A DNA stretch of 31,016 nucleotides from an uncultured Rhodospirillaceae bacterium (GTDB lineage: Bacteria; Pseudomonadota; Alphaproteobacteria; RF32; CAG-239). Below, one piece after another: positions 3,874 to 25,704 of this stretch. The stretch is taken from assembly GCA_900320035.1 (NCBI GenBank), contig ONQU01000121.1, positions 1 to 31,016 on the forward strand, written 5' to 3'. The translations under genes were made by a program, and so were the position numbers. Position 1 is the first letter of the stretch, and every line of letters begins with the position of its first letter. Below the pieces are notes generated by a model. The model was not told the DNA's origin and ran no database searches. It worked only from the letters and a program-made list of their open reading frames with translations.

Positions 3874-5613
3874 TTAAAATTTGGTAAGATTTTGCATTTG
3901 GTAAAATTGAGCGTATGCACCTTGCGTTTGCAGCAATTTATCGTGCGTTCCTTCTTCTATAATTTTACCATTATCCATAACCACCAGACGGTCCATTTCT
4001 TTTAAGGTAGACAGCCGGTGGGCAATGGCAATAACGGTTTTGCCCTGCATCAGTTTTTTGAGCGATTTTTGAATGTATTGCTCACTTTCGCTATCAAGCG
4101 CCGATGTGGCTTCATCTAAGATTAGAATTGGTGCATTTTTCAAAATAGCGCGGGCAATGGCAATGCGCTGGCGTTCACCGCCGGAAAGCATAACACCGCG
4201 CTCGCCGACTTTACTTTGATATCCGTGCGGAAGTTTGAGGATAAACTCGTCGGCATATGCCATTTTTGCAGCCTTTATCACTTCTTCGTCAGTGGCTTTG
4301 ACATTGCCGTAGCGTATGTTTTCCATAATGGTGCGGTTAAACAAAGCTGTATCTTGCGGAATAACGGCAATATGCGCGCGCAAACTTTCTTGTCGGACTT
4401 GTGCGATATCTTGGCCGCCCACGGTAATTTTGCCGCTTTGCAAGTCATAATAGCGCACCAAAAGTTTTATTAAGGTAGATTTTCCGCTGCCGGAATGGCC
4501 GACCAAACCGACTTTTTCGCCTGATTTTATTTTAAGCGTGAATTTATTGAACAAATTTTCTTTATGATTATAGTGATAAGTAATATTATCAAACACAATG
4601 GTTTTGCCGCGCATTTTCAGCGGTTTGGCATTTTCACAATCTATAACGGTGCACGGCGTATATATCATCTCCAAGCCGTCTTTAACTTGGCCGTAAGCGC
4701 GTGAAAATTCGCCGGCCAGCCAGCCGAAGCCATACATATCGTGCACCATACGGCTGATGAGTGTGAAGCAGAGCAATACGCCCTCTAAAGGCAAATTAAA
4801 TTTGAACCAAAAATAAAAAATTAAGCCAATATAGATTATGCGCATAAAATCAAAACAACTGTTACCAATCCAGTTATAAACCGAATCTTGGCGATTTTCT
4901 ACCTGTTCGGCGCGCACGGCTTGGCTAAGACTTCGATAAAAAAGATGCTTTTCATAAAAATAGTTCGCAAAACTTTTCAATAAATCACTATTTGTAACCG
5001 TATCAATAAAAATTCCTTCGGTTTCGGTCATCAGGCGCGCACGATTATAAGCATATTTGCCGACTCGGTAACGAATAAAACACGCCAATACAATAAAAAT
5101 GATATTCATCACGGCGAAAATTAAACCGAGCAAAATATTAACATACATAATAAACACAATGCTTACCGCAACACCAATAAGCGGATTAACCAGTGCAAAG
5201 GCTGTCATACGGCAAATTTGCGCCGTGCCGCTGACCACATTTTTAACTTTAGCGGCAATTTTACCGGACATTTCTTCTTGAAAAAAAGAAATGGAATGAT
5301 GGTGAACTGTTTTGAATAAATCCTTAAAAATAAGGCTGTTAAAATAAGGCAAAAATTTTGCTTGGGCAACGCGCACAACTAAATCAAGCAGGCTGTCAAC
5401 AGCAATTAGCGCCATATAAATTGCTAAAGCTATAATGATGTGCCGCAAAATACCGGAATCTTTAAGATAGTCCGGCAGCAAGCCTAAGGCACGCGCCATA
5501 TAAAACGATTCAAAGCGCAAAATGACCGCGTGGCCGATAACCGAAAGCATAATAATGGTTGCCAGCATTTTGGTTTTGCGCAAATATTTGAAAATAAAGG
5601 CAAAGACGTTCAC
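3874..5613 (-). CDS. ABC exporter, fused TMD + ATPase (MsbA/ABCB-like)
   Basis: N-terminal multi-TM domain; Walker A GHSGSGKST, signature LSGGERQR, Walker B ILILDEATSALD, H-loop IAHRLST. Confidence 0.93.
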   Translation of the reverse strand: MNVFAFIFKYLRKTKMLATIIMLSVIGHAVILRFESFYMARALGLLPDYLKDSGILRHIIIALAIYMALIAVDSLLDLVVRVAQAKFLPYFNSLIFKDLFKTVHHHSISFFQEEMSGKIAAKVKNVVSGTAQICRMTAFALVNPLIGVAVSIVFIMYVNILLGLIFAVMNIIFIVLACFIRYRVGKYAYNRARLMTETEGIFIDTVTNSDLLKSFANYFYEKHLFYRSLSQAVRAEQVENRQDSVYNWIGNSCFDFMRIIYIGLIFYFWFKFNLPLEGVLLCFTLISRMVHDMYGFGWLAGEFSRAYGQVKDGLEMIYTPCTVIDCENAKPLKMRGKTIVFDNITYHYNHKENLFNKFTLKIKSGEKVGLVGHSGSGKSTLIKLLVRYYDLQSGKITVGGQDIAQVRQESLRAHIAVIPQDTALFNRTIMENIRYGNVKATDEEVIKAAKMAYADEFILKLPHGYQSKVGERGVMLSGGERQRIAIARAILKNAPILILDEATSALDSESEQYIQKSLKKLMQGKTVIAIAHRLSTLKEMDRLVVMDNGKIIEEGTHDKLLQTQGAYAQFYQMQNLTKF

Positions 5614-5615
5614 TT

Positions 5616-6611
5616 TTATAAAATCTCCCGATGGCGTTTTTTCAGATGTGTCAGTTTATCGCTGACAACACCCGTATCATGTCCGGCGTATGCCAGACGG
5701 CTATACATCTTTTCAATTTCCCGCTCTAAAAAAGCTGTTTCAACACTTGCAACCAATGCTTGTTTTTGTTCGTTGGTGCCATTTTTTTCTATGTGTTTAA
5801 CTTCAGCAAAACAATCTTCAACATCTTTTCCATAAACATTTTTTTGCTTAATATAATAAGGTAGTTTATAAATTAGTAATCGAGCATTGGTATAATGTTC
5901 TTTACTATTTGAACACTTATAGCAGGTCATTTTTAAGAGCCGAAAGGCAATTTCAAGTTCTTCAGCATCATCAACCACAATAAAAGGCACCGGATCGGCA
6001 AATCCTTCGTGTACCATCAATTTTAAAAATTCTAACAAATGGTGAAAATAACCGTTGATGTTGTAAAGAATAAAAGGCTTCATCGGTAAAAGACCATCTT
6101 GCATGGCTACACAATCATAAGCTAATTCATCCAAGGTGCCGACACCGCCGGGAGCAAAAACCACGTAATCGGCATTTAAGAGTTTCTGTTTGCGTTCTTC
6201 TAATGTACGCGCCACAACAACTTCCATTTTAGCAATTAATGTGTCATCACTCGGATACAGTTTGTAATATTCGGCAGTAGTAATTCCCTGAATAGGTAAG
6301 TTCCCTCTTTTTTCTTTGGCGTTCCAACTATCAAGCACACCGCGTGCCACGGCGCCCATAATACCGCTGTTAGAAAGACCAAAATCGAGACGGAAATCCA
6401 TTTTAACGATTTTTTGCCCTAAACGGTACGCTTCAGCAACATATTGTTCGTCATTACCGGCACGTGAACCGCCGGCTACAAAGACACGAATACCGGCCTT
6501 GCTGTTTTCGGCTTTAAACAGTTCTATGGCTTGATCTTCATCCTTTGTTGTCTTTGCACTTGTTTTTACTAAATGCCGAGGCATCATTTCGTCCGAGCGA
6601 TCATGTTTCAT
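5616..6611 (-). CDS. LOG-family nucleotide phosphoribohydrolase with C-terminal helical extension
   Basis: Rossmann start RVFVAGGSR...AYRLG...GIMGAVARG; EERK and PGGVGTLDE LOG motifs; roughly 90-100 extra C-terminal residues. Confidence 0.8.
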   Translation of the reverse strand: MKHDRSDEMMPRHLVKTSAKTTKDEDQAIELFKAENSKAGIRVFVAGGSRAGNDEQYVAEAYRLGQKIVKMDFRLDFGLSNSGIMGAVARGVLDSWNAKEKRGNLPIQGITTAEYYKLYPSDDTLIAKMEVVVARTLEERKQKLLNADYVVFAPGGVGTLDELAYDCVAMQDGLLPMKPFILYNINGYFHHLLEFLKLMVHEGFADPVPFIVVDDAEELEIAFRLLKMTCYKCSNSKEHYTNARLLIYKLPYYIKQKNVYGKDVEDCFAEVKHIEKNGTNEQKQALVASVETAFLEREIEKMYSRLAYAGHDTGVVSDKLTHLKKRHREIL

Positions 6612-6613
6612 GG

Positions 6614-7756
<1,143 letters not shown>

Positions 7757-8902
7757 TTATTCGTCTTTATAAACTTTACTGCCGGGTGGTACCGGTTTAC
7801 CAATACCTTTTTGGAGCAATTTAGAGGATATAAAACCCATTTCACCTTTATCTAACACAACTTTATACCATTTTTTATCCGGTGTGTAGCCGAATAAGCG
7901 CACGGTTTGATTGGCTTGACCATAGGCCATAGGCTGATAACGTTCATCGGGACCATGGTAAATCAGACAATCTTCCGTAATATGATATAAATATTCACGG
8001 CTGTGTATGTCACTGCTTACTTTCATCACATGCGAATCGACCATATCGTAAGCCATTACTTGTCCATTATCCATTTCTATAACAGAGAAATAGCCCTGTG
8101 GCAGGTAATCTTTAGTAATTTTAGAGCCAATCGCAAAGAGAATAATTAAAAGCAGAATAAAAGGCAATAATGCTTGACGCCATTTCAGTTCACGTGCTTG
8201 CCAACGCGGTAATTTAACGGTATGAGAGGGACTAAAGTTAAGCTCTCGGATATAAAGTGTGAGAAGGGTTTGAGCACGCGTGTAGTGTAATTTTTCCGCT
8301 AAAAGATAGGCTTGATTAGCATAAATCCATGCCATTTCAATATTATTTTCCTGTTCGTAAGCAAGGGTATTATGGAGTAAAAGCTGCAAATTATCAAGGT
8401 CTTCGGCTTTAGCAGCGCGAAGGTTATATTGAATGGCGGCAATATTTTTTAAAAATGCGTCAGGTGCCCACCATCCGCCTAACCAATTAGCGCGTGCTGT
8501 GCTTCCTACCAAGGACATGGCTTCACGGAAAGTGCAAATATCTTTTGTTTCAATAATTTGCGATTTTTTGAAGTTTGGTTTAACGCGCCTTTGTTTTAAA
8601 ACGCGCAAAGCTTTATCTTCCTTACCGGCTTGATTTTTATATATTTTTAAAGAACCGAGAGAGGGAAAATTTTGCTTGTTATAAACCAAGGAAAGTAAAT
8701 CATACTGCCGACGCAATTTTTCATCTTTTAAAATGTCGTAAGCAACGGAAACCTTTTGAAACATTTCCAATGCTTTTGTATCTTCATTATGGTCAGGGTG
8801 CCAAAATTTAGCGCGCGTATAATATTGGCGCTTAATTGTTGCCGCATCGGCGTCATAAGCTGTTTCAAGGACCTTATAATATTCTAAAGGATCAAAGTCC
8901 AT
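7757..8902 (-). CDS. J-domain (DnaJ-like) membrane protein with C-terminal SH3-like domain
   Basis: YYKVLE...AKFWHPD...AYDILKDEKLRRQYD J-domain; NWLGGWW middle domain; TM segment ALLPFILLLIILFAIG; C-terminal KKWYKVVLDKGEMGFISSKLL resembles SH3b. Confidence 0.8.
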   Translation of the reverse strand: MDFDPLEYYKVLETAYDADAATIKRQYYTRAKFWHPDHNEDTKALEMFQKVSVAYDILKDEKLRRQYDLLSLVYNKQNFPSLGSLKIYKNQAGKEDKALRVLKQRRVKPNFKKSQIIETKDICTFREAMSLVGSTARANWLGGWWAPDAFLKNIAAIQYNLRAAKAEDLDNLQLLLHNTLAYEQENNIEMAWIYANQAYLLAEKLHYTRAQTLLTLYIRELNFSPSHTVKLPRWQARELKWRQALLPFILLLIILFAIGSKITKDYLPQGYFSVIEMDNGQVMAYDMVDSHVMKVSSDIHSREYLYHITEDCLIYHGPDERYQPMAYGQANQTVRLFGYTPDKKWYKVVLDKGEMGFISSKLLQKGIGKPVPPGSKVYKDE

Positions 8903-9683
8903 GGTGTTTCTCCTGTTCTAAAATTTTGCCGGCAATATTAACAACATCTTCTGAAGCTTCAGCATTAGGATAGCGGTTAAGTAATAAAGCGCCATTGCGG
9001 ATGGCATCACGTATTCGTGTGTCACGACGAATGACTCCCATAAGCGGCGGTGTTTTTTTCACATATTGTTCGCAAGCTCGCCGTAGGGAATTATAGGTAC
9101 GTAAACCGGCTTCGTATGAATTAGCATAGTTAACAATAATTTGGAGCTCAGCGTAATTATCACGAATATCATTGCTTTGTAAAAAATTATAAGTGGATAC
9201 TAAATTAGAAAGATCATCTGTACAAATTAACAGCAAATTTATCTCGTGAGGCATAAGATGCTTAATGATTTTTTCGGTTGCCGGCAAATCGATGATAACG
9301 TATTGATAATTTTGTGCTAATGCCATTAAATCTTCACGTAAAAGGTGTAGTTGTCCGATGGGGACATCTTCCAGCAGGTTACTGCCGGAAGGGGCACTTA
9401 ATATGTGAAATTTATGTTTGTTAAGAGGGGTTAATGCCTGATTGATTGTCAGGTGACCATCTAATACTTCGCCGAGTGTGTTATGATCATCAAGGCCGAG
9501 TTGAAAATTTAAATTTAATAAGCCCCCCGCTGCGTCAAAAAGTAAGACGCTGCGATGTTGTTGGTTAAGAGCATGGGCTAATGTTGTTGCCAACCAAGTC
9601 TTTCCAACACTGCCGGCTCCGGAAGTTATGGCAATGAAGTTATGTTTGCGTTGTAAAAATAAGTTTTTATCTATATTTATCAT
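8892..9683 (-). CDS. MinD/FlhG(FleN)-family ParA-like ATPase with degenerate motifs
   Basis: IAITSGAGSVGKT P-loop, VLLFDA..GL.NL, YVIIDL, IIVNYA, GVIRRD..IRDAI follow the FlhG/MinD layout. Confidence 0.8.
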   Translation of the reverse strand: MINIDKNLFLQRKHNFIAITSGAGSVGKTWLATTLAHALNQQHRSVLLFDAAGGLLNLNFQLGLDDHNTLGEVLDGHLTINQALTPLNKHKFHILSAPSGSNLLEDVPIGQLHLLREDLMALAQNYQYVIIDLPATEKIIKHLMPHEINLLLICTDDLSNLVSTYNFLQSNDIRDNYAELQIIVNYANSYEAGLRTYNSLRRACEQYVKKTPPLMGVIRRDTRIRDAIRNGALLLNRYPNAEASEDVVNIAGKILEQEKHHGL

Positions 9684-9797
9684 CTTGAGCTTTTGAAATT
9701 TATTTTATAATATGATACAAGACTATCGTTTTTATGCAAAGAATTAAAATCTTTTTAACACAATTTATTTACAATGCGGTGTAGAGGTGTGTGGAAA

Positions 9798-10781
9798 ATG
9801 AGTAAAAAGGGCTTATTTTGGGTATTTTTGGTGGCATTACTGGTTAATGTCGCGACGATTGCGCTTGCCCAACATAATTCTATGGTGCAACGCATTGACT
9901 ACCTAAGTGATACTCTTCTGATCGTTGGGCGCAATAATTTTCCGCCGTTTTCAGATTACAAAGTAAGCCACGGTAAAGTTTTTTTGCAAAGCGTCTTTTT
10001 GAAACCGTTGCAAAAGGCTATGAAGAATCATCCGGCAAAATTAAAATCTCCGGTCTTTAATTATAATCAACATCCTGATTTGGATAGTTTAGCTTTTCAA
10101 GCGCAATTTGGAGAATATAACTTATTTATCGGTGCTTATGCCGATACGAAAGAATATAAAGGTTTAGATTTAATTTATCCGGCGGTTGTTTCTAATCCGA
10201 TACATATTATTACATTGCCGGAAAATGCCGCTAGAATTAGTGATAAAGCGGCGCTTACCAAGTTTCGCGGTTTGGTGGTTGATACGGAAATATATAATAA
10301 TTTCAGCAAACGTAAAATTAAAGAGTTAAATGCAGAACATGTGGCAACGCCACTTGAAGCTTATGAAAAGTTATTTACCAAGCAAGTGGATTATATTATC
10401 GGCGGTTTATATTATCATCGTATTATGTCCAGCCAATATGGTTTAGATCCTTTTTTGAGTTATTCTAAAAAGCCGCTGTTTAAAATTCCGGTATTTGTTG
10501 CTATGTCTAAAACGACACCGAAATTTTCGCTTTATCAAAAGGCTTTTCAGGAAGCTTTTGCTGATCCGGCATTCGGTAATGAAGTAAAAAAGGAAATTTT
10601 GCAGATGGTTGAAGATGTATTGGCGCAAAATCGGGGAATTGTTCCGCCGGCATTTGCTCAAGCGGCTGAGCCGGCCGAAAATAAAACAATAGATGAAGAA
10701 GTTGAAAAGCAACCGCTTGGCCATATTATTGAGCAGAAGGTTGAAGAAAAAACATTTGATGAAGTATTAGAGGGAATATAG
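9798..10781 (+). CDS. Periplasmic substrate-binding protein, family 3-like
   Basis: Signal peptide (MSKKGLFWVFLVALLVNVATIALA); NFPPFS motif, a LTKFRGLVV segment, LFTKQVDYII; acidic C-terminal tail. Start chosen at ATG 9798. Confidence 0.65.
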   Translation: MSKKGLFWVFLVALLVNVATIALAQHNSMVQRIDYLSDTLLIVGRNNFPPFSDYKVSHGKVFLQSVFLKPLQKAMKNHPAKLKSPVFNYNQHPDLDSLAFQAQFGEYNLFIGAYADTKEYKGLDLIYPAVVSNPIHIITLPENAARISDKAALTKFRGLVVDTEIYNNFSKRKIKELNAEHVATPLEAYEKLFTKQVDYIIGGLYYHRIMSSQYGLDPFLSYSKKPLFKIPVFVAMSKTTPKFSLYQKAFQEAFADPAFGNEVKKEILQMVEDVLAQNRGIVPPAFAQAAEPAENKTIDEEVEKQPLGHIIEQKVEEKTFDEVLEGI

Positions 10782-10789
10782 GAGGAAAT

Positions 10790-11455
10790 ATGGTTCTTTT
10801 GGTGCATAACAGTGTTTTACCGCAATGTCGTAAAATCCGGATTTTAATGTCGGAAAAAAAGATGCTGTTCGTTTTAAAAGAAGAAAATCCATGGCATCTT
10901 TCTGCCGATATTATGAAAATAAATCCGGCCGGTGAACTGCCGATTTTTATCTATGATGGTAATATTATTGCCGGAAATTATGCAATTACCGAGTTTTTGG
11001 AAGAAACATATACACAGAATCGGCTTATTCAAGGAAACAATAAAGAACGGGCGGAAATTCGTCGTTTGGTAGATTGGTTTGATAATAAATTTTACCGCGA
11101 TGTTTATCAATACATCGGTGGAGAAAAAATATATAAACGCTTTGCTTTAAAACAATCACCGGACAATAGGCGTATTAAAGTTGGTATCAATAATTTGCGT
11201 TTTCATTTGGAGTATATTGATTGGTTGGTTGAGCGCAATAATTATTTGGCGAGCAGTGAGCTTACAATGGCGGATATTAGCGCGGCAGCGCAGCTTTCCG
11301 TTATAGATTATTTAGGTGATGTGCCGTGGGAAGATTATAATAATGCCAAGTTGTGGTATTCAAAAATAAAATCACGGCCGAGTTTTAAGGAGATTCTTAA
11401 TGATCGTATCAAGGGTATTTATCCGTCGAAACACTATGCTGACTTGGATTTTTAA
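10790..11455 (+). CDS. fzlA: GST-family protein, FtsZ-binding FzlA-like
   Basis: INPAGELP GST motif; C-terminus WYSKIKSRPSF..IL.DRI.GI.P..HYADLDF matches the conserved alphaproteobacterial FzlA tail. Confidence 0.8.
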   Translation: MVLLVHNSVLPQCRKIRILMSEKKMLFVLKEENPWHLSADIMKINPAGELPIFIYDGNIIAGNYAITEFLEETYTQNRLIQGNNKERAEIRRLVDWFDNKFYRDVYQYIGGEKIYKRFALKQSPDNRRIKVGINNLRFHLEYIDWLVERNNYLASSELTMADISAAAQLSVIDYLGDVPWEDYNNAKLWYSKIKSRPSFKEILNDRIKGIYPSKHYADLDF

Positions 11456-12590: not shown

Positions 12591-13232
12591 ATGGCAAAAA
12601 ATATCGGTTTAGTCGGAGACAGTATCGGGCATGGCTATTATGACCACGAGGATTTAGGGTGGTTTGCGCGTTTGGGTAAGTTGATTTTGCGCGATTATTC
12701 TGAGGCTTATTTCTTCAATAATTTATCACAATCCGGTGATAATATAGCCGATGCTGCTTTTCGCGCAGTGGGCGAAACAATGTCGCGCAAGTTTGATTTA
12801 TTATTTGTTTCGGTCGGTATCAATGATTTACGGCGCCGTAAAGCATGTGCTTATGCGCTTGATTTTTCCTTTGGGGCGCGCGAGATGTATTGGCATCGTT
12901 TGCTTGATACGTTAGAGCAAACCGGTGCGCAAATTGTGGTGACCGATTTATTGCCGGTGATTGAAAAACGTTATACACCGCAGGCAAGTTTAGTCCGGCG
13001 TAATACTGATGTTGAAGACTATAATGAGCAAATTTGTAAGATATGCGAAAAAAGACAGATAAAGTTTTTTGTAAGATATCCGTGGTGGCAACGGCGACCT
13101 CTGGAAAATTTATATTTTGATGCAACACACCCGAATACGGTTGGGCATAAAATGATTGCTGAAGAAATGTATGAATTTTTGCAAAAAGAACAAATTTTAA
13201 CACCGGAAAAGTTTGCCTATGATTGCGAATAA
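12591..13232 (+). CDS. SGNH/GDSL hydrolase
   Basis: Blocks GDSIGHG (I), SGDNI (II), GIND (III) and DATHPN (V). Confidence 0.9.
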   Translation: MAKNIGLVGDSIGHGYYDHEDLGWFARLGKLILRDYSEAYFFNNLSQSGDNIADAAFRAVGETMSRKFDLLFVSVGINDLRRRKACAYALDFSFGAREMYWHRLLDTLEQTGAQIVVTDLLPVIEKRYTPQASLVRRNTDVEDYNEQICKICEKRQIKFFVRYPWWQRRPLENLYFDATHPNTVGHKMIAEEMYEFLQKEQILTPEKFAYDCE

Positions 13233-13773
13233 AGTCCGTTTATGGCAAATTTATTTTACCTTTTTCAAAATGGGGGCAATAACATTTGGCGGCGGTTATG
13301 CCATGTTGCCGATTTTACAAAATGAAGTGGTTGCTAAAAAAAGGTGGGTAACAGAAGTCGATTTACTCAATTATTATTCTATCGGTCAATGTACGCCGGG
13401 AATTATTGCCGTGAATGCGGCTTCTTTTATCGGTTATAAATTGCGTGGGTTAAGCGGTTTAGTGAGCGCAACGCTGGGCTTAATGACGCCTTCGATTGGC
13501 TTGGTTTTATTGGTGGCGATGGTGCTGCGACAATATATGGACAGTCCATATTTACAATGGGCGTTTGGCGGTATTCGTATTGGGGTTTTAGCGCTGATTG
13601 TTAATACGGTTATCAATATGTGGCGCGGGAGTGTGCGGTATTGGCGTGATTATGCTGTGTTTATCGGGGCGGCCTTATTGTTGTTTGTTGGTAGATTGCC
13701 GGCGGTAGGTGTGGTGATTGTGGCGGCGATTGTTGCCTTTATTCCTAATTTTTCGCGGAGAAAGAGGTTATGA
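13219..13773 (+). CDS. chrA: Short-chain chromate transporter (CHR family), subunit 1
   Basis: FFKMGAITFGGGYAMLP and IGQCTPGIIAVN CHR motifs. Confidence 0.9.
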   Translation: MIANKVRLWQIYFTFFKMGAITFGGGYAMLPILQNEVVAKKRWVTEVDLLNYYSIGQCTPGIIAVNAASFIGYKLRGLSGLVSATLGLMTPSIGLVLLVAMVLRQYMDSPYLQWAFGGIRIGVLALIVNTVINMWRGSVRYWRDYAVFIGAALLLFVGRLPAVGVVIVAAIVAFIPNFSRRKRL

Positions 13774-14288
13774 TTTATGCCTTGATTTTCTGGGAATTTC
13801 TGCAGATTGGCTTGTTTGCTGTCGGTGGTGGTTTGGTAACCGTACCGTTTTTGTTTGATTTAGCCAGTAAATATGCTTGGTTCAGCAATCAGGAATTAAC
13901 CGATATGATTGCCGTGGCGCAGGCATTACCCGGTCCGGTGGGAATCAATATAGCGGCGTATGCCGGTTTTTATACCGCCGGTTGGGGCGGGGGAATTTTA
14001 GCGCCGCTTTCTGAAGTTTTGCCAGCCATGGCAGTGGTTTATCTGATTGCTCGAATAATGAATAAGTGGCAAGAAAATCGATGTGTTCAAAGAGTGTTAC
14101 GAGGCATACGGCCGGCGGTTTTAGCCTTGGTTTTATATGCGGCATGGATGATTGGGCAAGAAGTAAATCTTAACCCTAAAACAGCGGCATTATTTGTTTT
14201 TATTTTAGCGGCGATGCATTTTTATCAACGGAATGTGGTGCTATATATTGTGTTAAGCGCCATTGTCGGTGTGGCGCTGCAAATATAA
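13770..14288 (+). CDS. chrA: Short-chain chromate transporter (CHR family), subunit 2
   Basis: FLQIGLFAVGGGL and AQALPGPVGIN motifs; ATGA overlap with subunit 1. Confidence 0.88.
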   Translation: MIYALIFWEFLQIGLFAVGGGLVTVPFLFDLASKYAWFSNQELTDMIAVAQALPGPVGINIAAYAGFYTAGWGGGILAPLSEVLPAMAVVYLIARIMNKWQENRCVQRVLRGIRPAVLALVLYAAWMIGQEVNLNPKTAALFVFILAAMHFYQRNVVLYIVLSAIVGVALQI

Positions 14289-14337: not shown

Positions 14338-14778
14338 TTATTCAAAATCTTCGTCTTCAACTGTTGGCATGATCGGCATTGCTTGCGGTGAAGCAGTTGG
14401 TACCATCGCCGTCGGTTGAGATTTTTGCTTTGGCTTATACGGCTTATGGTGCATCATCGGTTTGCTACCGTCAGTGTTAATAATGATGACATTGCCGGCA
14501 CCGTCGGTATAGTTTGGTGTCATCATGGCATGTTTTTTCATCATGGCGCAATGGTGCGGATAATCCATAGACGAATGTTTCATGCAACGGCACATCATAG
14601 CGGTGCCGAATCCGGCTAAAAAGATGATTAAGGCGGCGACGAGTTTTGCACCTTTATGTCGGCATTTGCATTTGTCACAGCAGTGGCAAGGTTTATCGTT
14701 GCGTAAATCTTCCGGATGCGGTTCACGTGGTTCATGTGGCGGCATTGGCGGATTTTGCATTGGTTTTTCTTGAGGCAT
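14338..14778 (-). CDS. Small single-TM Cys/His/Met/Pro-rich hypothetical protein
   Basis: CHCCDKCKCRH before the TM segment LVAALIIFLAGFGTAMM; HHCAMMKKHAMM after it; RBS GAAAGG upstream; has its own terminator. Confidence 0.75.
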   Translation of the reverse strand: MPQEKPMQNPPMPPHEPREPHPEDLRNDKPCHCCDKCKCRHKGAKLVAALIIFLAGFGTAMMCRCMKHSSMDYPHHCAMMKKHAMMTPNYTDGAGNVIIINTDGSKPMMHHKPYKPKQKSQPTAMVPTASPQAMPIMPTVEDEDFE

Positions 14779-15017
14779 AATTTTTTCCTTTCAATTGAGT
14801 TGAATTAACGCGCATAAGATAATCGCCAATATTATAAATTAAAGAGGGGCTGATATTAAGGACAGGAAAATGTTTTACTTTATATCGTTGATATTTTAAC
14901 CGGATTTAAAACAATAAAAAGGTTAAAAAAAGTAAATTAACTATTTATTTCTTAATATTTATGTGTTACATTGCAGAAAATGTTATGTTTTTATGTAATT
15001 TTTGAGAGAGGTTTAAT

Positions 15018-15341
15018 ATGGCTATAAGTAATGAAATTGGCAAAAAAGGACGTTACAGTATTTTACAAAATGCCAATGGTGAAATTATGTTAATGATGAA
15101 CAGCCGTATGGGGGGACCGGAAAATCCGCGCTTTATTTATGATGGCGGAGAGGTTGCTTTGCTTTATCGCTCCCAAGAAAGTTCTGTCGCTTTTAAGGAA
15201 ATTGATCCGGAGGCTAGACAGCCATTAAAATCTGTTTCGGAAATTTTAGTGGTTGAAATTGAAGATGATGATGTAGAGAGAGAATATATTGTACCGGTTC
15301 GGCTGGTAAGAGATGTCAGTGCTCTGATTACCATAAAATAA
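15018..15341 (+). CDS. Hypothetical soluble protein (paralog of 25339..25632)
   Basis: GAGAGG RBS; 107 aa; ends 10 nt before the nuoL-like start; shares GE.x.L...R.G..E.P...LYRS.E..V and LV.E...Y.V with the 97-aa ORF. Confidence 0.8.
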   Translation: MAISNEIGKKGRYSILQNANGEIMLMMNSRMGGPENPRFIYDGGEVALLYRSQESSVAFKEIDPEARQPLKSVSEILVVEIEDDDVEREYIVPVRLVRDVSALITIK

Positions 15342-15351
15342 GCAGGAAAAT

Positions 15352-17031
15352 ATGATTGCATACACAACTTTGGCGCTTTTGGTGATTGCGCTTTTAGGCA
15401 GTGTTAATATAGGCATCAAAAGGGATCATCTTTTTTCCTTTTTGGTATTGGTTTTGTTTGGGTGTGTGTTTACACGTTTTTATTGGGATTTTACCCTGGG
15501 GCAGGAAAATGTTTTGGAATTTTTATGGACGAGTTCGCCGGGGGGAGATATTAAAATTGATATTATATCAAATGCCTATAATTATAATTTAATTTTACCG
15601 TTTTTTACCATAACGTTTATTGCCTTGGTGCAGAATTTATTGTTTCGTTTTGAGGAAAAAAGGACAGCGTATGCCGCGGTTCTGATTTTTAATTTGGTAA
15701 CTCTTATTACCATGATTACCGGCAATAATTTTGTGCAGCTGCTTTGTGCTCTGTTTGTTGCGGATATTTTAACACTGTTTCTGATTAAGGATATGGAGGC
15801 GTATAGGCGTTATATTTTACTTAATATTTCAGCCGATATGATTATCTTTACCATGATGGCAATTATTAATTGCAAGGCTGATTCGCTGGATATTCGTGAA
15901 ATTTTACATTATAAGCAAATAGGTGAACATCTTGATTTCATCGCTTTAGCAGGTCTGACTGCCAGTTTTATGAAAATGGGGTTGTTTATTTTTCATATTG
16001 GTATTATCGGTTTGCGAAATATTCGCTTACACCGTTTGCAAAATGTTTTGTTTTTATCATCACCGATTTTCGGCTTGGTACTGTTAATGAAATTTCATGT
16101 TTTATGGAATGCTTCGCCATATTTTACACCTTATCTGCACGTTATGTGTATTTTGAGCATACTAAGCGGGTTTTGGGGAAGCTTAATAACCCAGCACTTT
16201 AAGGCTAAAATAATTTATTGGCAAATGATGTTTTGGGCGATTTTGGTAGAATTGCTTTGTTTTAAGGGGTTTGAGTGGTCAGTCGAATATTCTCGTCTTT
16301 TGTTGCAAATGTATGTGTTGTCGGTTGCTTTATACCTCATCTATTATTATTTGGGACGTAAAAACAGTCTTTCAGCTTTAGTGTCGCAAACGCTGACTAA
16401 TTGGTTGCCTTTAAATTTGGCAGTGAGTTTTGTTTTTTTGATGTTTGTTGGTTTGTCTGGAACGTTAACTGCCGTGTACAATCGAGGAAATCGTTATTAT
16501 ATTTGGGCTTTTGCGGTTTTATATACGGCATCGCTTGCAACGGTTTTGCGGCAAATTTTCTATACACCAAAGACACTTTTAGCGGTTAAAACAGCAAAAC
16601 TCAGAACGCACACTCCAATTTTCTTTTTACTTGGCTTATTAAGTGTTCTGATTTTGCAATATCAGCAATTATTGGAACTTCCGGTTATAGGTTTTGCTCT
16701 AGTCTTTATGCTGTTGTGTCGGTTTATGCCTCTGAGTTATGTTGATTGTGTATTGGAAAAGTTTAAACAATGTCACAATAAAGACTTTGTTGGGCTTTTT
16801 TATAAATATATGGTGATTAAACCACTGCGCTTAAGTGGTCGCTTTTTGTGGTTGTTGATTGACTATCTTCTGGTTGAAAAGATGATTGTTGGCATTGCGC
16901 AAAGCTCTGTTTATAAAAGTTTGTATTGGCTCAGAAATCTTCATCGCAGTACTTCTTTAGGTGGTTCGGTCATTGTGTTAATTGGGGCCGCTCTGATTTG
17001 TGTGTCATTTATTTATGGAGGGTATAAATAA
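15352..17031 (+). CDS. nuoL: NuoL-like antiporter-type subunit, divergent
   Basis: ITMITGNNFVQL (TM4-5) and the C-terminal lateral-helix region HNKDFVGLFYKYMVIKPLRLSGRFLW match NuoL; position upstream of the nuoM/nuoN-like genes. Confidence 0.7.
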   Translation: MIAYTTLALLVIALLGSVNIGIKRDHLFSFLVLVLFGCVFTRFYWDFTLGQENVLEFLWTSSPGGDIKIDIISNAYNYNLILPFFTITFIALVQNLLFRFEEKRTAYAAVLIFNLVTLITMITGNNFVQLLCALFVADILTLFLIKDMEAYRRYILLNISADMIIFTMMAIINCKADSLDIREILHYKQIGEHLDFIALAGLTASFMKMGLFIFHIGIIGLRNIRLHRLQNVLFLSSPIFGLVLLMKFHVLWNASPYFTPYLHVMCILSILSGFWGSLITQHFKAKIIYWQMMFWAILVELLCFKGFEWSVEYSRLLLQMYVLSVALYLIYYYLGRKNSLSALVSQTLTNWLPLNLAVSFVFLMFVGLSGTLTAVYNRGNRYYIWAFAVLYTASLATVLRQIFYTPKTLLAVKTAKLRTHTPIFFLLGLLSVLILQYQQLLELPVIGFALVFMLLCRFMPLSYVDCVLEKFKQCHNKDFVGLFYKYMVIKPLRLSGRFLWLLIDYLLVEKMIVGIAQSSVYKSLYWLRNLHRSTSLGGSVIVLIGAALICVSFIYGGYK

Positions 17032-18455
17032 TGTTTAATTTGCCGACGTTATTGATACTTTTACCATTACTCGGTTGCCTTTTTGTTATGTTTTCGCGTC
17101 GCGATGCCGATAATGCATACCATATTTCTCTTTTAACAATTGGTTCCGGATTGGCGCTGATTTTACGTCTGTTTATGCAACTCGACGTCACTGAAAAAAA
17201 ACTACAATTTGTGCATAATTTTGAATGGTTGCAAAACGCCAATATAATTTTTTCATTTGGCGTTGATACGTTTTCTTTATTGCTGCTTATGGGGATATAT
17301 TTATCCTTGCTGACAGCTTTAATAGGTCTTTCTCCGCAGGCACGAGAGCATAAATCGTTGTTGGCTTGGAATATGTATTTTTTGGCTGATATTACAGGGT
17401 TTTTGTTTGCCAATGATATGTTTTCTTTTTATGTTTTCTTTGCCGCCATACTTTTGCCTTTATTTATGTTAATCGGCCAATTTGGCGGTTTAAAAAAGAA
17501 GATGAGTTTATATTTGTTTTTTATTTTTAATTTTGCCGGCATTTTGGTTTTATTATGCGCATTGGTTTTGGTTTATAAATATTACCACGGTAACATTATG
17601 TTGCAAGAAATTGCTTTAATGAACATGCCACCGGTGGTGGCCTCTGTTGTGTGGGGTGGTGTTTGTCTGTCATTTTTGGCACGTATTCCGATTTGGCCTT
17701 TTCATTACTGGATTTCAACGGTTATTGCTAATATTAAAAATCCGCTGGTTTATGTGATTGTTACTCTTATTCCCTTAACCGGGTTATATGGTTTTATGCG
17801 CTTTTGGCATTTTACTATTGCGGAAAGTATCCGACCGTATATTGATATTATTATTGTATGTTGCCTCATAACCATGATTTTTATTGTGTTAATTGGAATT
17901 GCCCATAAAGAATTTTTATATAAGTTGTTTTCTTATATTACTTTCTATTATCTTCTGTTTTTGCTGGCAGAAATTTTACTGTCATCAATTTTTCAAGCAG
18001 ATTCATTACAGATGAATATTGCCTATACCATATTTACATTTTTACCGGTCACTTCAACTTTGATTGTGCTTGATTTACGTATGGAAAGAGAGTGCGAAGA
18101 TAAAAAATGTGATTATCGAGGTATTTTAGCGTATATGCCTAAACGCGCCAAGCTCTTTGTTTTCTTTGTACTTATTGCTCTGGGACTGCCGGTTTCGGCC
18201 ATGTTTTGGAATAATTTTATTATCGTTTCCGCATTGTTTAAATTCAGTTTTAATATTGGTATTTGTGTTATGTTTGCCTTATCATTGATTACGGTGGCAA
18301 TGCTTTACGAACTTTATGTTATGCGCGATTTGAAAAAGCACATTGAAAATAATGATGATATTCAAGATATTTCAAATATTCACCTTGCATATTTTGTTAC
18401 TATCATCGGCATTTTGTTCTTATCTTTTTTCAATCCTCTGTGGTTTAAATTCTGA
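17031..18455 (+). CDS. nuoM: NuoM-like antiporter-type subunit, divergent
   Basis: LILLPLLGCLF, FSFGVDTFSLLL, LFMLIGQFGG, IPIWPFHYW, GLYGFMRF and LGLP motifs. Confidence 0.8.
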   Translation: MFNLPTLLILLPLLGCLFVMFSRRDADNAYHISLLTIGSGLALILRLFMQLDVTEKKLQFVHNFEWLQNANIIFSFGVDTFSLLLLMGIYLSLLTALIGLSPQAREHKSLLAWNMYFLADITGFLFANDMFSFYVFFAAILLPLFMLIGQFGGLKKKMSLYLFFIFNFAGILVLLCALVLVYKYYHGNIMLQEIALMNMPPVVASVVWGGVCLSFLARIPIWPFHYWISTVIANIKNPLVYVIVTLIPLTGLYGFMRFWHFTIAESIRPYIDIIIVCCLITMIFIVLIGIAHKEFLYKLFSYITFYYLLFLLAEILLSSIFQADSLQMNIAYTIFTFLPVTSTLIVLDLRMERECEDKKCDYRGILAYMPKRAKLFVFFVLIALGLPVSAMFWNNFIIVSALFKFSFNIGICVMFALSLITVAMLYELYVMRDLKKHIENNDDIQDISNIHLAYFVTIIGILFLSFFNPLWFKF

Positions 18456-18466
18456 GGAGATGTATT

Positions 18467-19879
18467 ATGTTAGAACAATTTTTATATATCTTACCATTGT
18501 TGATTTTGCTGGGAGGTGTTTTCGCCTTAACGGTAAAGAAATTTGAAGCAAATGCGACACCGCAATGTTTTAAATTAAGCCGCCTAATTCTAATTATAAG
18601 TCTTGTTTTAAGCATTATTTTTTATAATCGGCCAATGGTGGCAAACTTAAGTTTGGCAAATTATTCAACGTTACTTTTTATCTGTTGGCTCTTTACTTCA
18701 GCGCTTGTTATTCTTCATTTGGCGCAAAAGTGGTTCAACACTATGCAACAGAGTGGTGCCAGTTTTTGCCGTCCGCTTGTTATGGCCGTTTTATCCGGTT
18801 GCTTGCTGATAATTTCCAAGAACCTGTTTTTAACCACAATTGCCCTAATTCTACTGATTTTTGCCAATATGCAGATACTATGGCAAAGTCATGAAAACAA
18901 GCATTCTCATTGGCTGAAAGGAACACCATTAAAATTGAGCCTGTTTTTTGGTTTGCTTATCATTATAATTATGGGAAAGTTATATTATACCTGTGGAACG
19001 ACTGACTATAATGTTCTACAAATTGCCTTAGCGCAAAATCAACATTTGCTTGTTTTTGCGGCAGTTTGTTGTTTGCTTTTGGCTTTTGTATTCCTTTTGG
19101 CGGCCGCGCCATTGCATTATTGGCTGTTAGAAATTGCCACAAAAGCAAGTTTACCGGTTTTAATCTATTTTATGCTTGTTCCGACAACTTTGAGCTTAAT
19201 CGGTTTGACACGGCTTAATATGATGATGCTCCTGCCGCTGAGCAATTCCCTGCAAATTTTTTATGTTGGTATAGGCATAATGTCAATTTTTGTGGGGGCA
19301 ATCAGCGCTTGTAGCAGTTCCAATATTCGGCAGATTTTGATTTGCAGTATTATCTATAATATGGGTGTAATTTTCTTTATTTTGCAACATTTCTCATTGT
19401 TAAATGTTCAGACGGCGATTGTTTATTGGTTTATTTGTTGGTTGGCCTATGTAGGGATTGGGACAAGTCTATTTTGTTTTAAAAGTAAAGGAGAATATCT
19501 TTTTGCCGTGGAACAGTTTGCTAATGCGGCTTATCAAAAACCCTATGCTACTTTGATGGTGACACTATTTCTTTTTTCATTGTTGGGGGTGCCGCCTTTA
19601 AGCGGTTCTTTAGGTTTGTTTGTCGTCTTAAATGAATTAGCCGGGCATAACCATTTTTACAGCATTGTTTATATATTGTCGATGCTGATTATTATGAGTT
19701 ATGCTTATTTAAGTTTTATTCAAAAGCTCTATTTTGCTAACAGTCGCAATAATTTTGATCGTTCCGGTATGGATTTGCACATTTTGCTATTTTTCGTGGC
19801 GGTGATAATGGTCTTAATTACTATTGAACCGCGTTATTTGATGGAATATCCGTGGATAGCGGAGATTTTTCATGGCTAA
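18467..19879 (+). CDS. nuoN: NuoN-like antiporter-type subunit, divergent
   Basis: AAPLHYW, SIFVGAISA...NIRQIL..SIIYNMG, LFSLLGVPPLSG, SYAYLSFIQKLYF; directly upstream of birA as in alphaproteobacterial nuo operons. Confidence 0.78.
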   Translation: MLEQFLYILPLLILLGGVFALTVKKFEANATPQCFKLSRLILIISLVLSIIFYNRPMVANLSLANYSTLLFICWLFTSALVILHLAQKWFNTMQQSGASFCRPLVMAVLSGCLLIISKNLFLTTIALILLIFANMQILWQSHENKHSHWLKGTPLKLSLFFGLLIIIIMGKLYYTCGTTDYNVLQIALAQNQHLLVFAAVCCLLLAFVFLLAAAPLHYWLLEIATKASLPVLIYFMLVPTTLSLIGLTRLNMMMLLPLSNSLQIFYVGIGIMSIFVGAISACSSSNIRQILICSIIYNMGVIFFILQHFSLLNVQTAIVYWFICWLAYVGIGTSLFCFKSKGEYLFAVEQFANAAYQKPYATLMVTLFLFSLLGVPPLSGSLGLFVVLNELAGHNHFYSIVYILSMLIIMSYAYLSFIQKLYFANSRNNFDRSGMDLHILLFFVAVIMVLITIEPRYLMEYPWIAEIFHG

Positions 19880-20603
19880 AAAATATGATAGATGGCAAAT
19901 TTATTATTATGATGAAGTTACCAGTACCAATGACATCATCAAAAATTTGTGTGTAAAAGCCAATGACAAAATAGTTGTTTGTGCTCAAAAACAAACCGCT
20001 GGTCGTGGTCGTATGGGACGCCAATGGCAAAGTTTGGCCGGAAATTTATTTTTTTCATTAGCTCTAAATGTGGATTTGCGTTCGCTTGGTACATTTATCT
20101 TGATGTGTGGTTTAACCCTATGCCAAACGATTCATACTTTGCAACCGATGGTGAATGTACAAATAAAGTGGCCGAATGATGTGTTGTTAAATAATGCCAA
20201 AGTTAGTGGTATGCTGTTGGAAAAAGGACCTGCCGATTACCTGATTATAGGCATCGGCGTTAATCTGGTACAGCATCCGATATCATCGGACATTATATAT
20301 CCGACAACATCGTTGAGCAATGCCGGAATAAATGTTACTATTCAGCAATTCCTTAAGTTGTTTTTAAAACAATTTACAAAAAATTTAGCACTTTTAGAGA
20401 CCAAAACCGGTTGTGCCACTCTACGCAACCAATGGCTCGGCTATGTTAAAGGTCTGGGTGAAAGGTTAACTGTTCGCCAAGAAAACCAAGAAATGAGCGG
20501 TGTGTTTAGAGGAATTGATGAAAATGGCTATTTAATGCTGGAAAATGACACCGGAATATGCCAAATTAGAGTCGGTGATGTGTTTTATATTAAGGAAAGT
20601 TGA
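19872..20603 (+). CDS. birA: Biotin-protein ligase (class I, no HTH)
   Basis: STND, QTAGRGRMGRQW, KWPNDVL and KVSGMLLE motifs. Confidence 0.95.
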   Translation: MAKKYDRWQIYYYDEVTSTNDIIKNLCVKANDKIVVCAQKQTAGRGRMGRQWQSLAGNLFFSLALNVDLRSLGTFILMCGLTLCQTIHTLQPMVNVQIKWPNDVLLNNAKVSGMLLEKGPADYLIIGIGVNLVQHPISSDIIYPTTSLSNAGINVTIQQFLKLFLKQFTKNLALLETKTGCATLRNQWLGYVKGLGERLTVRQENQEMSGVFRGIDENGYLMLENDTGICQIRVGDVFYIKES

Positions 20604-22261
20604 TGAGTGATTTTAAGAAAGAAGGAATATATTTTATGCCACTCGGCGGTGCCGATGATATCGGCATGAATATGTATATGTATGCTGTTGACGGGAAAAT
20701 CATGGTGGTTGATGCCGGTTACGGTTTTTTAATGGATAATTTTCCCGGTATGGAGTTGGCTTATGCCTCACCGGAATTTTTAGAAAATTACAAAGAGGAT
20801 ATTGTCGGCTTGTTTATTACCCACGGTCACGAAGATCACTTGGGTGCAATTGCGCAAATTTGGCCGTCATTACAATGTCCGGTATATGCCATGGACTTTT
20901 CGCTCGGTTTAATTAAAGAACGTCTAGCCGAATTTAAAATGGAAGATCAAGTGCCGCTCATTTCAGTTAATCAAAAGCGCCTGATTGAGTTTGAAAATTT
21001 TAGCGTGGAATTTATTGATATTGCGCACACCGTGCCGCAAACCTGTGTTTTAGCCATTCGCACCAAATACGGTAATATTTTGCATGCCACTGATTGGCGT
21101 TTCGATGATGAAGCGTTGGCTATGATACCGACCAATTTTAAGGCCTTGAGAAAACTGGCCAAAGAAGGCGTTTCTATGTTGGTATGCGATTCTACCAATG
21201 TGATGATTGATAAAAAATCACCTTCGGAAGCAGAAGTGCGGCAGCATTTAATTGAACTCATTCCACAAATTGAGGGTGGTGTTATCGTCACCTGTTTTGC
21301 TTCCAATTTAATGCGTCTGGAAAGCTTAATTTTGGCCGCACAAGCTGCTAATCGAACCCCGATAGTTTTTGGACGAACTTTGGTTACCAACCTTAAAATT
21401 GCCAAAGAATGCGGCTATTTAGCTGATTTGCCACAAGTATTTACCATTGAAGAAGCTAAAGATATTGCTGCGGAAAATGCACTTTACATTTGCACCGGTT
21501 CACAGGCTAACCATCATAGCGCAATGAGCTTTATTGCTAATGGTGAAAGCAAGTATATCAAGCTCGATAAATCGGATACCATTATATTTTCTTCCAAAGT
21601 TATCCCCGGTAATGAGGATAAAATTGAGCGCATGCAAGAAAAAATGGCCAACCAAGGCGCCACAATTATTACAGATGAAACCGAATTGGTGCACACTTCC
21701 GGCCATGCTTGCCGTGGTGATTTGAAAAAAATGTACCAGCTTCTAAAACCGGCCATTGTCTTGCCGGTACATGGTGAAAAAAGTTTTATTCGTGAGCATA
21801 AACGTTTTGCTCTGGCGTGCGGAATTGGCGAAGTGTTTTCAGCGCGCAACGGTGACATGTGCCTCTTAAAAGATAATCATATTGAATGTATTGAGCAAGT
21901 GGCAACCGATATCTTAGGTTGGGATCGTAGCCGACCGGTTTCTCTTGGCTCTGATGTTATCCGCAATCGCCGCCGCATCGCTTATAATTGCTCAATGTAT
22001 ATCAGTGCCGTTATCAAAGGCGAAAAACTGCTCGATTTGCAAATAACTTCGATTGATATTTTAGAGGCCGACGAGTGGCAAAAACTGGCGGCTGAAATTC
22101 TGACCGAAGTAAGACCGCTGATTGAAAAGCGCTTAACGCAAGAACCACAGCAGAATCAGCTAGAAGATTATATTCGTGGCCAAATTCGTCGTCGTGTTTT
22201 TCAGGCTACCGATATTAAACCGGTTACCATGTTGTACGTGACATATTTGACTAAGGATTGA
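20603..22261 (+). CDS. rnj: Ribonuclease J
   Basis: PLGGADDIGMN, THGHEDHLGA, CDSTN, CFASN, HTSGHA and PVHGE motifs; TGATG overlap with birA. Confidence 0.95.
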   Translation: MSDFKKEGIYFMPLGGADDIGMNMYMYAVDGKIMVVDAGYGFLMDNFPGMELAYASPEFLENYKEDIVGLFITHGHEDHLGAIAQIWPSLQCPVYAMDFSLGLIKERLAEFKMEDQVPLISVNQKRLIEFENFSVEFIDIAHTVPQTCVLAIRTKYGNILHATDWRFDDEALAMIPTNFKALRKLAKEGVSMLVCDSTNVMIDKKSPSEAEVRQHLIELIPQIEGGVIVTCFASNLMRLESLILAAQAANRTPIVFGRTLVTNLKIAKECGYLADLPQVFTIEEAKDIAAENALYICTGSQANHHSAMSFIANGESKYIKLDKSDTIIFSSKVIPGNEDKIERMQEKMANQGATIITDETELVHTSGHACRGDLKKMYQLLKPAIVLPVHGEKSFIREHKRFALACGIGEVFSARNGDMCLLKDNHIECIEQVATDILGWDRSRPVSLGSDVIRNRRRIAYNCSMYISAVIKGEKLLDLQITSIDILEADEWQKLAAEILTEVRPLIEKRLTQEPQQNQLEDYIRGQIRRRVFQATDIKPVTMLYVTYLTKD

Positions 22262-25338: not shown

Positions 25339-25632
25339 TTATTCTGCAATATCAACAAGATACGTTTGTAAAATTTCTACTTCACCTTCGTTTTCAGCGG
25401 GTAAAACTTCACAGACCAGCAACTTATTTTTGTTTTTTACTTGTGTAAACAGTGCTTCATCGGCAACCGCCAACGTCACCATATCTTCGCCACTACGATA
25501 AAGCTCCATTTTATGCGCATCAGACATCAGTCGCAGCACCGGTCGTTCAATTTTACCTTCGCGCGCGTATATAAAAAGGGCTAACTCTCCGCCTTCGCAA
25601 GGCACAAACTGAAATAAATTTTGCATTGCCAT
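25339..25632 (-). CDS. Hypothetical soluble protein (paralog of 15018..15341)
   Basis: 97 aa; AAGGA RBS; motif sharing as described for the 107-aa ORF. Confidence 0.75.
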   Translation of the reverse strand: MAMQNLFQFVPCEGGELALFIYAREGKIERPVLRLMSDAHKMELYRSGEDMVTLAVADEALFTQVKNKNKLLVCEVLPAENEGEVEILQTYLVDIAE

Positions 25633-25704
25633 TTTTTTTAATCCTTGTTATATTTTTTGCATGGATAAAATTTTAGGGTATTTGTGGTTAAAAATTATCT
25701 AACG

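Follow-up and report, generated by a model that had tools for sequence, protein, structure and literature searches.

The window analysed here is a stretch of 31,016 nucleotides (contig ONQU01000121.1, GenBank assembly GCA_900320035.1, forward strand) from an uncultured Rhodospirillaceae bacterium, placed by GTDB in the alphaproteobacterial lineage RF32; CAG-239. The metagenome-assembled genome (MAG) to which it belongs is 1.23 Mb long and 78% complete. Three adjacent genes of the window are related to nuoL, nuoM and nuoN, which encode the antiporter-like subunits of respiratory complex I; below, the genes and their products are called L, M and N, and together the trio. NCBI labels the trio proteins either "hypothetical protein" or "proton-conducting transporter membrane subunit". 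We conclude that the three genes are almost certainly orthologues of NuoL, NuoM and NuoN that stand without the remainder of complex I and are under selection. The row in which they lie is composed as follows.

14779..15017, + strand: AT-rich intergenic region between a divergent open reading frame (ORF) of 146 amino acids (aa) and p107; probable promoter region
15018..15341, + strand: p107, gene for a soluble protein of 107 aa that belongs to an unnamed domain family
15352..17031, + strand: NuoL-like gene, 559 aa, about 16 transmembrane (TM) helices
17031..18455, + strand: NuoM-like gene, 474 aa
18467..19879, + strand: NuoN-like gene, 470 aa
19872..20603, + strand: birA, biotin-protein ligase (TIGR00121, 172 bits), used as a synteny anchor
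20600..22261, + strand: rnj, RNase J (Pfam RNase_J domains), used as a synteny anchor

The six genes from p107 to rnj are co-oriented and tightly packed, and the L, M and N reading frames are free of stop codons. L and M are joined by a TAATG stop/start overlap at 17031 with GGAGG ahead of it, GAGGAG precedes the start of N, and N overlaps birA by 8 nt. No nuoA-K genes lie upstream of the trio in the window. The initial annotation had described this terminal nuoL-M-N-birA-rnj synteny, with its coupled junctions and without nuoA-K upstream, and the layout was seen as claimed. p107 is probably the first gene of the operon, and positions 14779-15017, in which the promoter-like sites are consensus matches only, would then hold the promoter for p107-L-M-N-birA-rnj. 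The GC content of the trio is 4-8 points below that of its flanks in the window.

Sequence searches identify M and N as distant relatives of complex I subunits. Both gave weak Pfam matches to PF00361 (E 8e-18 for M and 1e-14 for N), and their best NCBIfam models were TIGR01972 (NuoM) for M, at 165 bits against a cut-off of 263.8, and TIGR01770 (NuoN) for N, at 105 bits against a cut-off of 332.6, so that neither reached the curated threshold. Models of MrpD scored 35-48 bits on M and N, well under these values, and every hydrogenase model in NCBIfam also scored well below them. L had no match in Pfam, NCBIfam or PDB (phmmer) sequence searches, and its identification therefore needed profile alignment and a structure model. 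Profiles built from 19-21 orthologues of the genus (21 each for M and N) were aligned by hhalign with genuine alphaproteobacterial subunits. M scored 281 with NuoM (probability 99.9%) vs 79 with NuoN, and N scored 340 with NuoN (probability 100%) vs 101 with NuoM. L aligned collinearly with genuine NuoL, residues 3-520 with 5-580 (E 5.7e-5), including the motif at which the lateral helix (HL) starts. The AlphaFold2 (AF2) model of L, made from 34 family sequences, has a pLDDT of 84.4 and a pTM of 0.83; its top 50 Foldseek matches were all NuoL, ND5 or NdhF chains. Residues 1-505 of the model superimpose on residues 3-562 of E. coli NuoL (VIA Z 33, root-mean-square deviation about 3.7 A over about 485 residues), and past model residue 440 only L-type chains align in VIA. 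In the model TM7 is interrupted at K208, TM12 runs through without a break, and an amphipathic HL of about 54 residues (about 479-532) is followed by a C-terminal TM16, so the NuoL-specific form of the antiporter-like fold, with TM15, HL and TM16, is present.

Gene order gives the same assignment. The order L-M-N-birA-rnj was found at 20 loci of the genus and, outside the genus, at 17 loci from 12 other genera of the family (37 loci, about 13 genera), with p107 in front of the trio at most of them; all three genes are present at the 37 loci, two of these contigs stopping within the L gene or ahead of it. Eight genuine alphaproteobacterial loci read nuoJ-K-L-M-N-birA-(x)-rnj, so that the trio matches in position the last genes of the alphaproteobacterial nuo operon and is orthologous in that sense. 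Identity between the trio and genuine Nuo subunits is 20-22%, compared with 43-56% among the genuine subunits themselves. Orthology is thus assigned on the basis of the synteny with birA-rnj, the profile matches and the predicted fold of L.

The other parts of complex I were searched for beyond the window. NuoD, NuoH and NuoK were not found in the window's own genome (78% complete). In related genomes, NuoH (PF00146) and NuoD (PF00346) were found in 0 of 41 genomes of the genus, 26 of them of high quality; NuoD was likewise found in 0 of 149 high-quality genomes of the family, which represent 19 genera; and NuoK/MrpC (PF00420) was found in 0 of five complete genomes. The same five complete genomes gave no match for cytochrome bd, haem-copper oxidase (COX1), a UbiA-family prenyltransferase or DabA (PF10070). 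Positive controls gave matches for each family searched, and the genomes are mostly 95-100% complete. A complete set of nuoA-K elsewhere, named at the outset as something that would make these ordinary subunits, was accordingly not encountered.

An [FeFe]-hydrogenase is encoded by 20 of 21 genus genomes and ATP synthase by all five complete genomes; two genus genomes (G011 and G004) carry two separate pairs of ATP-synthase alpha and beta genes. Rnf was found in two of the four genera tested and not in the genus of the window; the other genera examined for ATP synthase and Rnf were those of G066, G179 and G111. Family genomes are small (1.2-2.0 Mb) and come from rumen, bovine and human-gut metagenomes. 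The lineage is one of anaerobic, host-associated fermenters without a quinone-based chain, given that no oxidase or quinone prenyltransferase was found and that [FeFe]-hydrogenase is common. This bears out an anaerobic, host-associated origin, which had been raised only as a possibility.

The charged residues on which proton pumping depends were followed in MAFFT alignments of E. coli, 10-12 genuine alphaproteobacterial sequences, 19-21 orthologues of the genus and 17 orthologues of other genera, with the E. coli reference residues confirmed in the K-12 sequence. The relay residues do not vary among the 11-13 genuine sequences. All the listed relay lysines and glutamates of M and N are replaced in 21/21 orthologues of the genus. 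The motif replacements first read by eye in NuoM and NuoN were recovered both by MAFFT and by phmmer against Paracoccus NuoM and NuoN, and the proper alignment did not bring back glutamates or lysines at shifted positions. In M, K234 is arginine and E407 is asparagine throughout (38/38 sequences each), K265 is leucine in the genus and leucine or isoleucine in other genera, H322 is tyrosine in the genus and in 16/17 of the others, and H348 is phenylalanine in the genus and phenylalanine or tyrosine elsewhere. The TM5 glutamate of M (E144) is alanine or threonine in the genus, and the other genera keep it in 15/17 sequences. In N, residues E133, K158, K217, K247 and K395 are replaced in the genus by varied, mostly hydrophobic residues; among the 17 sequences of other genera, K395 is kept in nine (arginine in four), E133 in four, K217 in two and K247 in none. 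The linking histidine of N (H305) persists in 10/21 genus orthologues.

L has lost E144 (now phenylalanine), H254, H334, H338, K342, K399 and D400 in the genus and in the other genera. Its TM7 lysine, K229 of E. coli, corresponds to K208 in the motif FMKMG and is kept in 36/36 family sequences. L had been thought to retain this lysine only; the lysine stands, and the TM6 aspartate (E. coli D178, here D162) must be added, since it is kept in the genus and is aspartate or glutamate in 35/36 sequences overall. The family alignment of L, taken alone, has no conserved charged residue between 248 and 483, and that of N has H217 and D431 as its only conserved titratable residues. Genuine L, M and N have 32, 25 and 17 conserved charged or histidine columns respectively, and the genus retains 6, 7 and 5 of these. 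As judged from the alignments, the charge loss is stepwise across the family and has run to completion in this genus alone, as sister genera hold the TM5 glutamate of M and often the TM12 lysine of N; this qualifies the earlier description of a stripped charged axis. With the relay broken in all three subunits, and with no Q-module, NuoH or quinone found as a driver, canonical proton pumping by the trio can very probably be dismissed.

Despite these replacements the trio is under strong constraint. Rates of nonsynonymous and synonymous substitution (dN/dS, by the Nei-Gojobori method) were compared between strains within each of two further species of the genus, with dS values for L, M and N of 0.31-0.39 in the first and 1.0-1.3 in the second. 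In the first and second species respectively, dN/dS was 0.12 and 0.12 for L, 0.06 and 0.04 for M, and 0.07 and 0.08 for N, as against 0.11 and 0.15 for birA and 0.09 and 0.01 for rnj. The window and its nearest relative (L049) gave values of 0.05-0.10, with dS saturated at about 2, and this pair was excluded. Purifying selection constrains the trio as strongly as it does birA and rnj, and for this reason we regard the proteins as made and needed. The selection that the initial annotation had read from the intact frames is thus found, with dN/dS in the range 0.04-0.13 and not near 1. Two adjacent, stop-free PF00361 genes of about 475 aa are present in 145/149 high-quality genomes of the family. 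Between genera, identity falls to 22-28% for L, 35-41% for M and 25-30% for N.

Two strains of one species (loci L052 and L055) differ by 7-12% in nucleotide sequence over L-M-N (locus positions 4321-8820) and by about 1% over birA-rnj (8821-10820); upstream of p107 their DNA is non-homologous, with a MatE gene in one and a giant BigA-like adhesin in the other. From this step in divergence, the trio lies in or beside a recombination tract.

Four family genomes have no PF00361 gene (G077, G095, G122 and G110; loci L098-L101 in that order). G095 reads p107-birA-rnj, a clean deletion of the trio. G077 has p107, a 165-aa remnant of which the first 113 residues match L, and then birA-rnj. G110 and G122, which are of one genus, have p107, an unrelated secreted protein of 262-284 aa, and then birA-rnj. 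The ORF in the trio's place in the latter two genomes was considered as a possible remnant of L-M-N and rejected, being a secreted soluble protein of no known family. The whole trio has thus been lost at least three times independently in the family.

The sister family is represented by one genome (G025, 79% complete), in which a single locus (L047, G025:C81, 2250-12197) carries p107, nuoA-B-C-D-H-J-K, a truncated M, N, birA and rnj, with weak scores throughout. The encoded proteins measure 87 aa (nuoA), 139 (B), 208 (C), 365 (D), 278 (H), 210 (J), 99 (K), 348 (M) and 484 aa (N). The row contains no nuoE, F, G or I, and no L-like gene was found; its rnj is split into two ORFs. Either the row is a complex I-like operon that is decaying or minimal, or the assembly has frameshift errors. 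In both M and N of G025 the TM8 lysine and the linking histidine are lost while the TM5 glutamate and TM7 lysine are kept; N also keeps its TM12 lysine, and M is truncated before TM12. This one genome suggests that the break of the central axis predates the deletion of nuoA-K. Given the nuo gene order in relatives and the intermediate row of G025, the trio descends vertically from the nuo operon.

M and N differ in what has taken the place of the relay. The replacements in M are fixed and polar throughout the family, and those in N differ from species to species, as expected of positions that merely pack or face lipid. Across 38 sequences from about 13 genera, M has an invariant polar core of R218, N167, N237, N329, N394, N395 and Y307, of which N167, N237 and N329 stand where genuine NuoM has a conserved threonine or glycine. 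L249 is preceded by a new proline (P248), and the discontinuous-helix motifs of TM7 and TM12 (P220, P223, H225, G385 and P387) are fully conserved. This core may be a new functional site, or may represent a formerly hydrated axis that has been filled or zipped by hydrogen-bonding side chains.

Whether L, M and N still form a complex was considered from several kinds of data. Four of the 14 near-invariant residues of L lie in helix HL (Y484, G496, D504 and E509) and match residues conserved in genuine NuoL. Correlation of mirror trees, controlled for rnj, gave partial r values of 0.70 for M-N, 0.38-0.39 for L-M and L-N and 0.14-0.40 for pairs with birA, a suggestive but weak signal from pairs that are not independent, on which we do not rely. 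A complex prediction of L 470-559 (HL and TM16) against M and N(1-431) scored 0.01, which counts neither for nor against an assembly. That the three genes are kept or lost as a unit, together with the conservation of HL, fits a persisting assembly, which we take to be reasonably likely.

Taking the evidence together, we somewhat favour a retained, vertically inherited, non-pumping L-M-N module as the overall explanation. According to this proposal, nuoA-K would have been deleted in the ancestor of a small-genome, quinone-less, hydrogen-producing family of gut and rumen Alphaproteobacteria in which L, M and N survived, and the three proteins would form a complex with L's lateral helix as its clamp and with a selected role that is not energetic. 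This supports the earlier proposal of a repurposed membrane arm, as far as repurposing can be read from selection. For the role itself, a membrane scaffold or structural unit, with the M axis re-packed by an Arg/Asn/Tyr polar zipper, is quite possible though short of an even chance; a new carrier, channel or ligand site on the M core with the Lys-Asp pair of L is a tentative possibility; and some other role would be unlikely.

A more specific form of the transport idea holds that the trio, chiefly M, is a neofunctionalised transporter or channel for a small polar or ionic solute, working by facilitated diffusion or secondary transport, with its site at the invariant R218 and asparagine ladder of M and the retained Lys-Asp pair of L, where TM7 is broken. 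It draws on the contrast between the invariant polar replacements of M and the variable, mostly hydrophobic positions of N, on the conserved discontinuous-helix motifs of TM7 and TM12 in M, and on K208 at the predicted TM7 break of L; isolated NuoL, moreover, is reportedly cation-conducting. However, the TM8 and TM12 sides of all three subunits are left without a titratable pathway, the model of L has an unbroken TM12, and the exchanges Gly to Asn, Thr to Asn, His to Tyr or Phe and Lys to Leu fill cavities and would be equally expected from re-packing. No substrate-related gene is linked to the trio, and these genomes already have a conventional Na+/H+ exchanger gene, which in one species lies just upstream of p107 (L103, L104). 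We regard such a transporter as rather unlikely. Much the same holds for a broader proposal, doubtful but worth keeping in view, of a new membrane machine in which the arginine and asparagine-ladder site of M serves to bind or translocate a solute, or to sense a property of the membrane, without a redox partner.

The remaining explanations do away with a new protein function. A neutral relic, decaying and awaiting deletion, would account for the low identity to genuine Nuo subunits, the low GC relative to the flanks, the loss of the trio in some lineages and the truncated L remnant of G077. The low dN/dS in two lineages is incompatible with decay, as are some 4.5 kb of AT-rich reading frame kept stop-free in nearly all high-quality family genomes at 22-40% identity and sets of invariant residues common to the whole family, so that this explanation is very remote. 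It is also highly improbable that the frames are kept solely for cis effects on birA and rnj, through translational coupling or avoidance of polarity, with the proteins themselves irrelevant. The genes do overlap or abut behind one probable promoter upstream of p107, but selection of this kind would bar stops and frameshifts and not missense changes, so dN/dS near 1 would be expected; in addition, the genomes lacking the trio show that p107-birA-rnj can do without it. The low dN/dS thus leads us to reject both decay and coupling alone. Least credible of all, to the point of being negligible, is that the trio consists of normal subunits, of complex I or of Mrp type, with partners that lie elsewhere or were missed. 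The window's genome is incomplete and leaves some room for this; set against it are the absence of NuoD, NuoH and NuoK/MrpC from the mostly complete genomes searched with positive controls, scores far under the NCBIfam cut-offs, and the loss of the relay residues.

Several points weigh against the retained non-pumping module. At least three lineages of the family have lost the trio, which is therefore dispensable in some backgrounds. The invariant polar residues of M suit packing and transport equally, and for the C-terminal half of L the residue mapping depends on the model and on a profile alignment that is weak (probability 66%). L and N diverge fast between genera (22-30% identity, vs 48-65% for rnj), and constraint on their detailed sequence is loose. 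The evidence for expression, assembly and activity of the trio is indirect.

Among known systems, the closest are complex I's NuoL, NuoM and NuoN (Nqo12, Nqo13 and Nqo14; ND5, ND4 and ND2; structures 8qby of P. denitrificans and 3rko and 7p61 of E. coli), with which the trio shares synteny, profiles, fold and gene order, including 14-16 TM helices, a discontinuous TM7, and the HL and TM16 of L. Unlike complex I, the trio is without NuoA-K, quinone or a redox module; the TM5 glutamate, TM8 lysine or histidine, linking histidine and TM12 lysine or glutamate are replaced, and L is about 80 residues shorter than genuine NuoL. MrpA and MrpD of the Mrp (CPA3) antiporters have the PF00361 fold in common with the trio and likewise form a stand-alone membrane module without a redox arm. 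The trio differs from Mrp in that no MrpB, C, E, F or G was found, with PF00420 absent from the five complete genomes and the window's genome and the operon consisting of p107, L, M, N, birA and rnj; it also lacks the charged relay that Mrp needs, and Nuo models outscore MrpD. DabB-DabA, NdhD3/F3-CupA and the Mbh, Ech and FHL complexes are further cases of antiporter-like subunits outside NADH:quinone oxidoreduction, and systems of the DAB, CUP and group-4 hydrogenase types keep the Lys/Glu relay. The partner that a DAB system would have (DabA, 0/5 complete genomes) was not found, nor were the NuoD-like (0/149), NuoH-like (0/41) and NuoB-like partners of group-4 [NiFe]-hydrogenase complexes. 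An antiporter-like subunit acting as a scaffold outside complex I is said to exist in ND2, reportedly a Src adaptor at NMDA receptors in work attributed to Gingrich et al. 2004. The ND2 case differs in being eukaryotic, in involving a single subunit and in that ND2 still works in complex I. The trio thus works like no described system, counting neither as a complex I nor as an Mrp, DAB, CUP or hydrogenase-type module, and we class it as a degenerate, new variant within the NuoL/M/N lineage. Full-text literature searches returned no published description of an orphan NuoLMN, and a paper on gut "CAG" Alphaproteobacteria (PMC4967309) makes no mention of one.

Ion translocation is assumed to be what the antiporter-like subunits of complex I are for, and all pumping models build on their conserved Lys/Glu axis. 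In the trio the driver module and the axis are gone and the three proteins are still under housekeeping-grade selection throughout a bacterial family, which implies that the fold has a second function, structural or transport-related, that is independent of the axis. The lineage offers a graded series, from nuoABCDHJK-MN in G025, through sister genera with partial charges and this genus with none, to the clean-deletion lineages, by which features of the fold can be separated from those of pumping. If the trio were a new membrane machine, it would be one that fermenting Alphaproteobacteria of the gut have retained in well above a hundred species. For annotation, finding trio proteins in a gut MAG should not be taken to indicate respiration.

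The p107 protein is the most conserved product of the row (58-93% identity across the family, dN/dS about 0.02-0.06). It is an all-beta domain with the motif GGPENPRF.YDGG...ALLYRS...REY.VPVR, and its AF2 model (pLDDT 82) had no significant fold match in PDB. The domain family comprises 589 representative clusters; fusions with TIR, STAND/TPR, Sel1 or Ank domains are frequent, and in the TIR-domain proteins it often stands at the C-terminus. p107 is kept beside birA-rnj in the genomes without L-M-N and lies upstream of nuoA in G025. Both observations, with the breadth of the domain family, rule it out as an obligate partner of L-M-N, and it is probably an ancestral neighbour of nuoA with no functional part in the trio. 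This genome has several weak paralogues of p107, with a paralogue-like ORF in the window at 25342-25647 (- strand) and others on two contigs of G000 (C77, 9671-10150; C65, 458-886).

Upstream of p107 the window contains the divergent 146-aa ORF, a split pair of chromate transporter genes, a GDSL lipase and a GST. The 146-aa ORF (14338-14778, - strand) encodes a membrane protein with one TM pass and many Pro, His, Met and Cys residues, among them the sequence CHCCDKCKC; it has no family match, adjoins the chromate-transporter pair (13213-14288) and is possibly metal-related. Many MAG contigs of the genus (L018, L020, L021, L023, L029 and others) begin or end a few hundred bases upstream of p107, which fits a variable or repeat-rich region that breaks assemblies.

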